7,147 nt of DNA from a virus, in the UHGV virus genome UHGV-1395224. One strand, given 5' to 3'. The translations under genes were made by a program, and so were the position numbers. The notes below the pieces were generated by a model. It saw nothing but the letters and a program-made list of their open reading frames with translations, did not search any database and was not told where the DNA came from. Shown in pieces: positions 3,929 through 4,190 of this stretch. Within the stretch, counting starts at the first letter, position 1; every line of letters starts with the position of its first letter.

Positions 3929-4145
3929 GACTCACTCCCTGGCGGATTTTTGCAGCGAATACAGCAACACAACCGGACGGGCAACGGCTACGCGCTTCGC
4001 GTTCCGTCCAGGCGGTTACGTGGATGATTTGAGATTCTCCGGCACTCAGTGCCAGAAAACGCCACACAAAGGCCGTTTGTGTGTGTACAAGGTGTGGTAT
4101 ATGATTTACAGCAACCATAACGGCTCCTAGTTTACGTTGTTGGTT

Positions 4146-4190
4146 AGACGCCCCGTTACTGCTCCTACAGTGCGGGGCGTTGTTTTTTGT
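4146..4190 (+). terminator. Rho-independent terminator, plus-strand orientation, with no convincing plus-strand gene upstream
   Basis: ACGCCCCG (4148-4155) pairs with CGGGGCGT (4173-4180); an inner ACTG/CAGT stem (4158-4161 / 4168-4171) sits inside the loop; followed by TGTTTTTTGT (4181-4190). On the minus strand the hairpin is followed by CTAACCAAC, so it is unidirectional. Confidence 0.65.

Follow-up and report, generated by a model that had tools for sequence, protein, structure and literature searches.

Gene content of the satellite

The window (the whole stretch of 7,147 nucleotides that was analysed) is part of a Gram-negative PICI-type phage satellite whose listed genes all lie on the minus strand. 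These encode a tyrosine integrase (5439-6680), an AlpA protein (5180-5437) and, upstream of a divergent control region, a Bro-N protein (4545-5123). After the control region follows an early operon that is headed by a 65-aa Kil/Icd-like gene and continues with small ORFs, DUF4222 (3016-3315), a D5_N/DUF5906 primase (1268-3019) and an SSB (305-727). Positions 6876-7147 match the lambda portal gene B (lambda 3399-3670) with 99% identity, indicating that the satellite is embedded in a late gene of a helper prophage. From the orientation of this match, helper late transcription would enter the satellite on its int-alpA side.

Helper-embedded PICIs integrate inside a late gene of the helper prophage (PMC10111431). 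The window shows the same order of integrase, AlpA, Bro-N and primase/DUF5906 (Integration, Bro and Replication zones) and adjoins a lambda late gene, with only one of the junctions lying within the window. The word "portal" is absent from the main text of PMC10111431. That paper makes no mention of an antisense RNA or of a terminator at the start of kil/eta.

The region directly downstream of the primase gene (1026-1258) is densely packed with CCTCTACC/GGTAGAGG, present in at least 12 copies and in either orientation, which flank an AT-rich patch (~1205-1235). The array is probably the replication origin of the satellite, and it gives rise to spurious Rfam microRNA matches at 1175-1257. Two terminator-like hairpins (4515-4535 and 4575-4598, the second of them bidirectional) lie between the Bro-N gene and the divergent ribbon-helix-helix (RHH) gene, and probably separate the integration/Bro unit from the control region.

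The Kil/Icd-like gene at the head of the operon (3921-4118, minus strand) matches the NCBIfam model NF033153, "host cell division inhibitor Icd-like", with 63.7 bits (E 1.2e-17; curated cut-off 25 bits). Kil of phage P4, also of 65 aa, matches the same model with 76.1 bits (E 1.6e-21), and it is this shared match that links the two proteins as one family; pairwise BLASTP of the window protein against P4 Kil gave no match, and hhalign gave a weak one (31%). The gene has 107 homologues, among which substitutions follow a protein-like pattern. Its AUG (4118..4116) is preceded, at a distance of 6 nt, by the Shine-Dalgarno (SD) sequence AGGAG (4129..4125). At the other end, the next gene (61 aa, 3743..3928, minus strand) begins with an ATG before kil/icd has ended, and this 8-nt overlap (ATGCTTAA) points to translational coupling of the two genes. 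P1 Icd and P4 Kil are toxic proteins that inhibit cell division. The function of P4 Kil is summarised in PMC10111431. By its family membership, the 65-aa protein of the window may be toxic as well.

A predicted antisense RNA over the kil/icd-like start

The initial annotation of this DNA had pointed to a strong plus-strand terminator at 4146-4190. This terminator was borne out by the fold: a GC-rich hairpin at 4147-4181, with a stem of 14 pairs, is followed by GUUUUUUG (U-run 4183-4188), and RNAfold gave −23.4 kcal/mol for 4146-4192 on the plus strand (z = −5.5), with 0 of 200 shuffles folding as well. A generic terminator scan listed partial versions of it. The annotation had further placed a candidate small RNA here, in the leader region of the operon. 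Since 3921-4118 on the minus strand is a real gene, the terminator lies within the 5' UTR of that gene, on the opposite strand. The leader is not an empty one: the predicted RNA covers the SD and AUG of the Kil/Icd-like gene, which had been overlooked.

The predicted RNA, of ~76-80 nt, spans ~4111-4189 on the plus strand, with an inferred 5' end at 4111-4113 and a 3' end in the U-run. It is antisense, with full complementarity, to the 5' UTR, SD and AUG of the kil/icd-like gene. As in other cis-encoded antisense sRNAs, the predicted transcript lies opposite the initiation region of its target with full complementarity and has an intrinsic terminator at its 3' end.

The sequence 4111-4192 (plus strand) folds into two hairpins, SL1 and SL2, with a free energy of −32.1 kcal/mol (z = −3.8). 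In SL1 (4113-4145), positions 4113-4122 pair with 4135-4139/4141-4145; the loop (4123-4134) reads GCUCCUAGUUUA and includes an anti-SD, CTCCT (4125-4129), while the 5' arm includes an anti-AUG, CAT (4116-4118). SL2 (4147-4188) is the intrinsic terminator, with a stem of 4147-4161/4168-4181, the loop CTCCTA (4162-4167) and the U-run. In the window both loops thus carry anti-SD-like sequence; among variants, the loop sequence of SL2 is not conserved. We considered whether the SL2 loop, which reads UAGGAG on the sense strand, acts as an SD mimic that covaries with the type of ribosome-binding site or operator, and found no such correlation across variants. Termination may be leaky in some variants, in which the U-tract is interrupted (UUUCGUCGUUUC).

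Two alternative leaders upstream of kil/icd

The Rfam family C4 (RF01695, which includes P4 CI; gathering threshold 45 bits) was not found in the window (E<=1) or, with the looser cut-off of E<=10, in 4040-4260, while the positive controls P4 and L086 scored 74.9 and 76.4 bits with the same model. The isrK/P4 seqA family (RF01394) also had no match in the window or in 4040-4260, and it does match P4 and L086. No Rfam family matched the predicted antisense unit when 4040-4260 was scanned at E<=10.

Some PICIs have C4/isrK matches (PMC10111431). In P4 and in E. coli type-1 relatives, which encode a short "MATTPT" Kil-like protein, isrK and C4 (the CI RNA) are found on the sense strand just upstream of kil, and in relatives with this arrangement the antisense unit is missing immediately upstream of kil. 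Since the window has the unit and lacks C4/isrK, homologous genes appear to be preceded by two alternative leaders, one a P4-type sense processed RNA and the other an antisense RNA gene. The suggestion in the initial annotation that a small RNA here would fit the RNA-based immunity of P4-type elements was thus not upheld: P4 CI (C4) is a sense-strand RNA, and neither the C4 nor the isrK model finds a match in the window. As a separate observation, some type-1 (C4-containing) leaders, in L089-type loci, contain between C4 and kil an antisense promoter-like TTGGCA-16-TAAGAT (PWM 10.2). Its −35 overlaps the start codon of kil, and it is directed back over the C4 gene.

The structure is conserved in the plus-strand RNA

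Homologous loci were collected from IMG/VR and from genomes. The first set comprised Escherichia/Shigella and Pectobacterium loci (28 distinct sequences, alignment A4). From A4 we built a covariance model, R1, and the second set (A5) consisted of its 80 model matches, namely 78 held-out IMG/VR loci, the window and a Klebsiella record, with 43 distinct sequences. R1 matched 78/80 held-out loci, every time antisense to the icd-like gene, and did not match P4. In the window it gave a single match, at 4111-4189 on the plus strand (85.6 bits, E 6e-17), which is expected by construction as the window sequence is in the training alignment.

Both hairpins were more stable on the plus strand than on the minus strand across variants. 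For SL2 this was the case in 26/28 unique variants (−24.1 vs −17.7 kcal/mol) and in 37/38 of a second, more divergent set (−23.4 vs −17.8 kcal/mol), the lone exception among the latter being a type-1 locus. For SL1, the plus strand was more stable in all 16 unique variants (−10.0 vs −5.2 kcal/mol), and in 13 of these 16 the anti-SD was located in the loop.

The source of this gap lies in G·U pairs, which become A·C mismatches on the opposite strand. Canonical pairing was found in 98.2% of the alignment cells of A4 when read as plus strand and in 85.8% when read as minus strand; for A5 the values were 96.9% and 79.4%. G·U cells numbered 62 on the plus strand against 0 on the minus strand in A4, and 137 against 3 in A5. 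Compensatory changes were seen at 7/18 pairs in A4 and 13/18 pairs in A5, counts that represent non-independent events as the compared sequences are related by descent and recombination. None of 500 shuffles reached the observed covariation values, and slid controls paired at ~40%. The 45-fold strand asymmetry goes beyond mutation bias alone, indicating that the structure is selected in the plus-strand RNA. What the comparison establishes is that the structure exists, which strand it belongs to, that it is conserved and where it lies with respect to kil/icd.

Promoters and the divergent control region

Upstream of SL1, a −35-like hexamer TTGTGT (4077-4082, 3/6 consensus positions) and a −10 hexamer TATGAT (4100-4105) are spaced by 17 bp on the plus strand, as had been read from the sequence before. 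Both hexamers lie inside the kil/icd-like gene, so that this candidate antisense promoter is embedded in its codons 5-14. A generic promoter scan, which requires agreement with the consensus at 9 positions, did not list the pair, which agrees at 8/12; by PWM, equally high scores are reached in 0.2-0.9% of random 35-nt windows. TTGTGT-17-TATGAT/TATGCT ranked 1st or 2nd among antisense promoters by PWM, at the same position, in all 60 E. coli-type modules. The −10 positions −12T, −11A and −7T are kept (TATGAT/TATGCT/TAGACT, the last being the form in Pectobacterium and Klebsiella) despite changes in codons 5-7 (N/Q/E, H/S, I/T/S). A subfamily whose protein starts with "MxNH..PQGR" has an extended −10, TGnTATGAT or TGnTATAAT, 6 nt nearer to the AUG. 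Pectobacterium/Klebsiella-type sequences have a poor −35 and two competing −10 candidates, and in type-1 relatives the PWM scan found no consistent antisense promoter motif.

The start predicted from TATGAT places +1 at the base of SL1. This position, together with the conservation of the −10, is good circumstantial evidence for an antisense promoter with a weak −35, although the conservation stems partly from coding constraint and shared ancestry. The plus-strand small RNA of ~75 nt that the initial annotation had drawn from this promoter to the terminator gains strong comparative support from the strand-specific covarying structure, the conserved −10 and the lack of conservation of the competing plus-strand ORF. 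A second candidate antisense promoter, TTTACA-17-TAGTTT, which would start at ~4140 and yield a hairpin-only RNA, was less conserved and scored lower, and we set it aside.

The coding sequence of kil/icd contains a perfect 8-bp inverted repeat, CACACAAA-N5-TTTGTGTG (4063-4083), that overlaps the antisense −35. E. coli-type short (64-66-aa) kil/icd modules preserve this repeat almost without change, synonymous sites included, and it is missing from type-1 genes, from Pectobacterium-type genes and from type-2 copies that head long eta/Ash-like ORFs. The repeat could serve as an operator at which a protein controls the antisense promoter; alternatively, together with the GCGUUUUCUG that comes after it, it could form a weak attenuator on the sense strand. 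Examined as an attenuator, the intragenic sense hairpin 4083..4063 with GCGUUUUCUG folds weakly (−10.3 kcal/mol, z = −1.1), and this reading was set aside.

On the minus strand, the operon has a predicted sense promoter TTGACA-17-TACTAT (4254..4226, 10/12 consensus positions) with a start at ~4219, so that the sense and antisense promoters are convergent and ~107 bp apart. A perfect palindrome, ATGGTAATTACCAT, is read at 4206-4219, and its core, GGTAATTACC, recurs at 4238-4247, in the spacer of the sense promoter; both are likely operators. Diverging from the operon is a gene for a 57-aa RHH protein (4248-4421, plus strand) with weak Arc and YlcI matches, presumed to be the repressor. Its candidate promoter, TTGTTT / TACAAT (4180-4185 / 4202-4207, plus strand; PWM score 9.2), has a −35 that overlaps the U-run of the predicted RNA. 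The segment 4180-4254 thus forms a compact divergent control region, in which the sense start and the candidate RHH-gene start are a few bases apart.

Distribution of the antisense unit

In most loci, similarity to the window starts at the terminator U-run or within the stem (~4190-4177), and upstream of this boundary we found more than 10 unrelated types of promoter and operator. The hairpin therefore travels with the kil/icd start. An 87-nt unit is present in 856 of 5426 complete E. coli genomes (~16%), including the O157:H7, O55:H7 and O145 lineages, and the antisense unit was also found in one Klebsiella record and in Pectobacterium elements. In E. coli O157:H7, the element that carries it is located beside roxA/pepT/potA. 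It is nearly identical among satellites with unrelated repressor/operator types, and some genomes carry 2-3 copies.

We also observed the antisense-RNA (type-2) cassette at the head of long (at least 185-200 aa) eta/Ash-like ORFs (L051, L063, L066, L078, L089, L093, L098 and L111). These loci sometimes have a second cassette in tandem, or an isrK-C4-kil region after the ORF, from which it follows that one element can carry both RNA systems in series. Such loci suggest that the arrangement in the window arose by recombination between repeated Icd-like N-termini.

The searchable literature yielded no description of the predicted antisense RNA. This silence fits a new RNA, and fits just as well an RNA that stayed unexpressed in the conditions studied so far. 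Esr41 is located on SpLE1 and is unrelated.

Alternative readings of the hairpins

The hairpins could be explained in other ways. One is that SL2 is only an insulating terminator, which stops stray plus-strand transcription before it reaches the divergent repressor promoter, with no discrete regulatory RNA involved. The terminator does adjoin the candidate RHH-gene promoter, and the antisense promoter is weak by consensus. Insulation, however, leaves unexplained why a second plus-strand hairpin with an anti-SD loop (SL1) is conserved, why a −10 is conserved in position just upstream of it, and why the unit is inherited together with the kil/icd start and not with the repressor module; we therefore regard it as unlikely. 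That the terminator merely ends a plus-strand protein gene (the 68/84-aa ORF at 3927/3876-4130) is extremely improbable. In the window this ORF runs uninterrupted and ends 16 nt short of the hairpin, but its frame is the codon-aligned complement of kil/icd, it has neither an SD nor a family match, and it is interrupted by 1-3 stop codons in 38/61 unique homologous modules, so that it is not a conserved gene. The absence of a convincing plus-strand gene before the terminator, on which the initial annotation had built its case, was thereby corroborated, and conservation of the 68-aa ORF (3927-4130), which together with its translation was to have overturned that case, was not seen.

The hairpin might instead act on the sense (minus) strand in the kil/icd leader, as a reduced C4/CI-like processed RNA, as a 5' stabiliser, or as a protein-binding or translational operator. 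Its position equals the slot of P4 cI and P1 c4, the sense RNA folds too (−21.3 kcal/mol), and a conserved CUAACCA follows the stem on that strand. Against this speak the G·U counts given above, a sense-strand pairing of 79-86%, and C4 and isrK models that match P4 and type-1 loci well and do not match here. A cap at the 5' end would also be poorly placed, the hairpin starting ~30 nt from the predicted 5' end of the sense RNA, and CUAACCA is accounted for as the complement of the 3' arm of SL1. The same complementarity, with the strand asymmetry, ruled out a substrate of the RNase P type (a stem followed by ...ACCA), and we consider action on the sense strand very unlikely. An RNA that is real but acts mainly in trans, its CUCCU loops pairing with the kil/icd messages of other satellites in the same cell or with mRNAs of the helper phage or the host, would agree with the near-identity of the unit in satellites with unrelated repressor/operator types, with the 2-3 copies in some genomes and with the two anti-SD-like loops in the window. 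The sequence of the SL2 loop is not conserved, though, and full complementarity in cis offers the simplest target, which makes a mainly trans-acting RNA distinctly unlikely.

Discussion

Our preferred reading, to which we give a probability of roughly two in three, is that ~4111-4189 on the plus strand encodes a small cis-antisense RNA that represses translation of the kil/icd-like gene. Transcription would begin at the antisense promoter in codons 5-14 of kil/icd, run against the gene and end at the terminator before the divergent repressor promoter. The anti-SD loop of SL1 and the complementary loop of SL2 could make loop-loop contacts with the mirror-image hairpins of the mRNA, and pairing over the 5' hairpin, SD and AUG would then block ribosome binding, and may also create an RNase III substrate, so that the toxic Kil/Icd-like protein would not be made. 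Repression would spread to the downstream replication operon, because the next gene would lose its translational coupling and the untranslated leader would invite termination. Being convergent and ~107 bp apart, the sense and antisense promoters may interfere with each other, and strong sense transcription after induction could turn the antisense promoter off. Transcription from the antisense promoter, the repression and its polarity are what we infer.

The logic of such a switch is established for c4-icd-ant of P1 and CI-kil/eta-timm of P4, in which C4/CI is released from the leader by RNase P. For P4, it is summarised in PMC10111431. By analogy the window would follow the same control logic with an RNA made from the opposite strand. 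P4 CI and P1/P7 C4 (RF01695), with seqA/isrK (RF01394), resemble the predicted RNA in being small RNAs that head the early operon directly upstream of a Kil/Icd-family gene and, if the analogy holds, in controlling the translation of kil/icd and thereby transcription downstream. They differ from it in that C4/CI shares a strand with its target, matures from the leader by processing and binds target sequences that are short and repeated, whereas the RNA of the window is on the opposite strand, has a predicted promoter and terminator of its own, and is fully complementary to its target. The ~78-base RNA gene is probably an undescribed RNA switch in the slot where phage P4 uses the CI RNA.

Cis-antisense control of this kind is known from other loci. 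In the immI region of P22 (Pant-arc-ant), sar is a ~69-nt cis-antisense RNA transcribed from a promoter that faces a strong early promoter; it covers a ribosome-binding site in an immunity operon under Arc-type repressors, and Pant and Psar interfere. The window would be analogous in its cis-antisense RNA over a ribosome-binding site, in its convergent promoters and in the presumed Arc-like repressor nearby. The likeness follows the general description of sar, which targets the antirepressor gene ant in a complete phage and is not known to have a sequence or family relationship to the predicted RNA. In the symE/SymR pair, an antisense RNA of ~77 nt starts from a promoter within the first codons of the gene for a small toxic protein, masks its SD and AUG, and stops at an intrinsic terminator. 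The predicted RNA shares with SymR/symE, Sok/hok and IstR/tisB the cover over SD/AUG and the intrinsic terminator, and its candidate promoter would likewise lie in the first codons; it differs from these type I toxin-antitoxin pairs in that its target heads the multi-gene replication operon of a mobile element, and the likely outcome would therefore be control of the life cycle of the element, beyond the silencing of a toxin. It is best filed as a new family among the cis-antisense RNAs by which the toxic or early genes of mobile elements are regulated.

A wider role can be sketched only tentatively, and as a whole it is doubtful. A large class of Gram-negative PICIs and helper-embedded PICIs might owe their maintenance or immunity to the antisense RNA, as a functional replacement of CI/C4. 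The RNA would keep the replication operon headed by kil/icd silent until, upon helper induction, convergent transcription shut the RNA off; it would also act in trans on any co-resident satellite with the same leader cassette, and might even form an addiction module resembling type I toxin-antitoxin systems.

How Gram-negative PICIs silence their early (replication) operon is only partly understood. The answer of P4 is the CI RNA, and many PICIs are without it; in the window, its place in the genome is taken by a predicted RNA gene that is read from the other strand. If functional, this RNA would add an RNA layer to the regulation between satellites and their helpers, and would be a case of one regulatory RNA having been swapped for another at a homologous locus.
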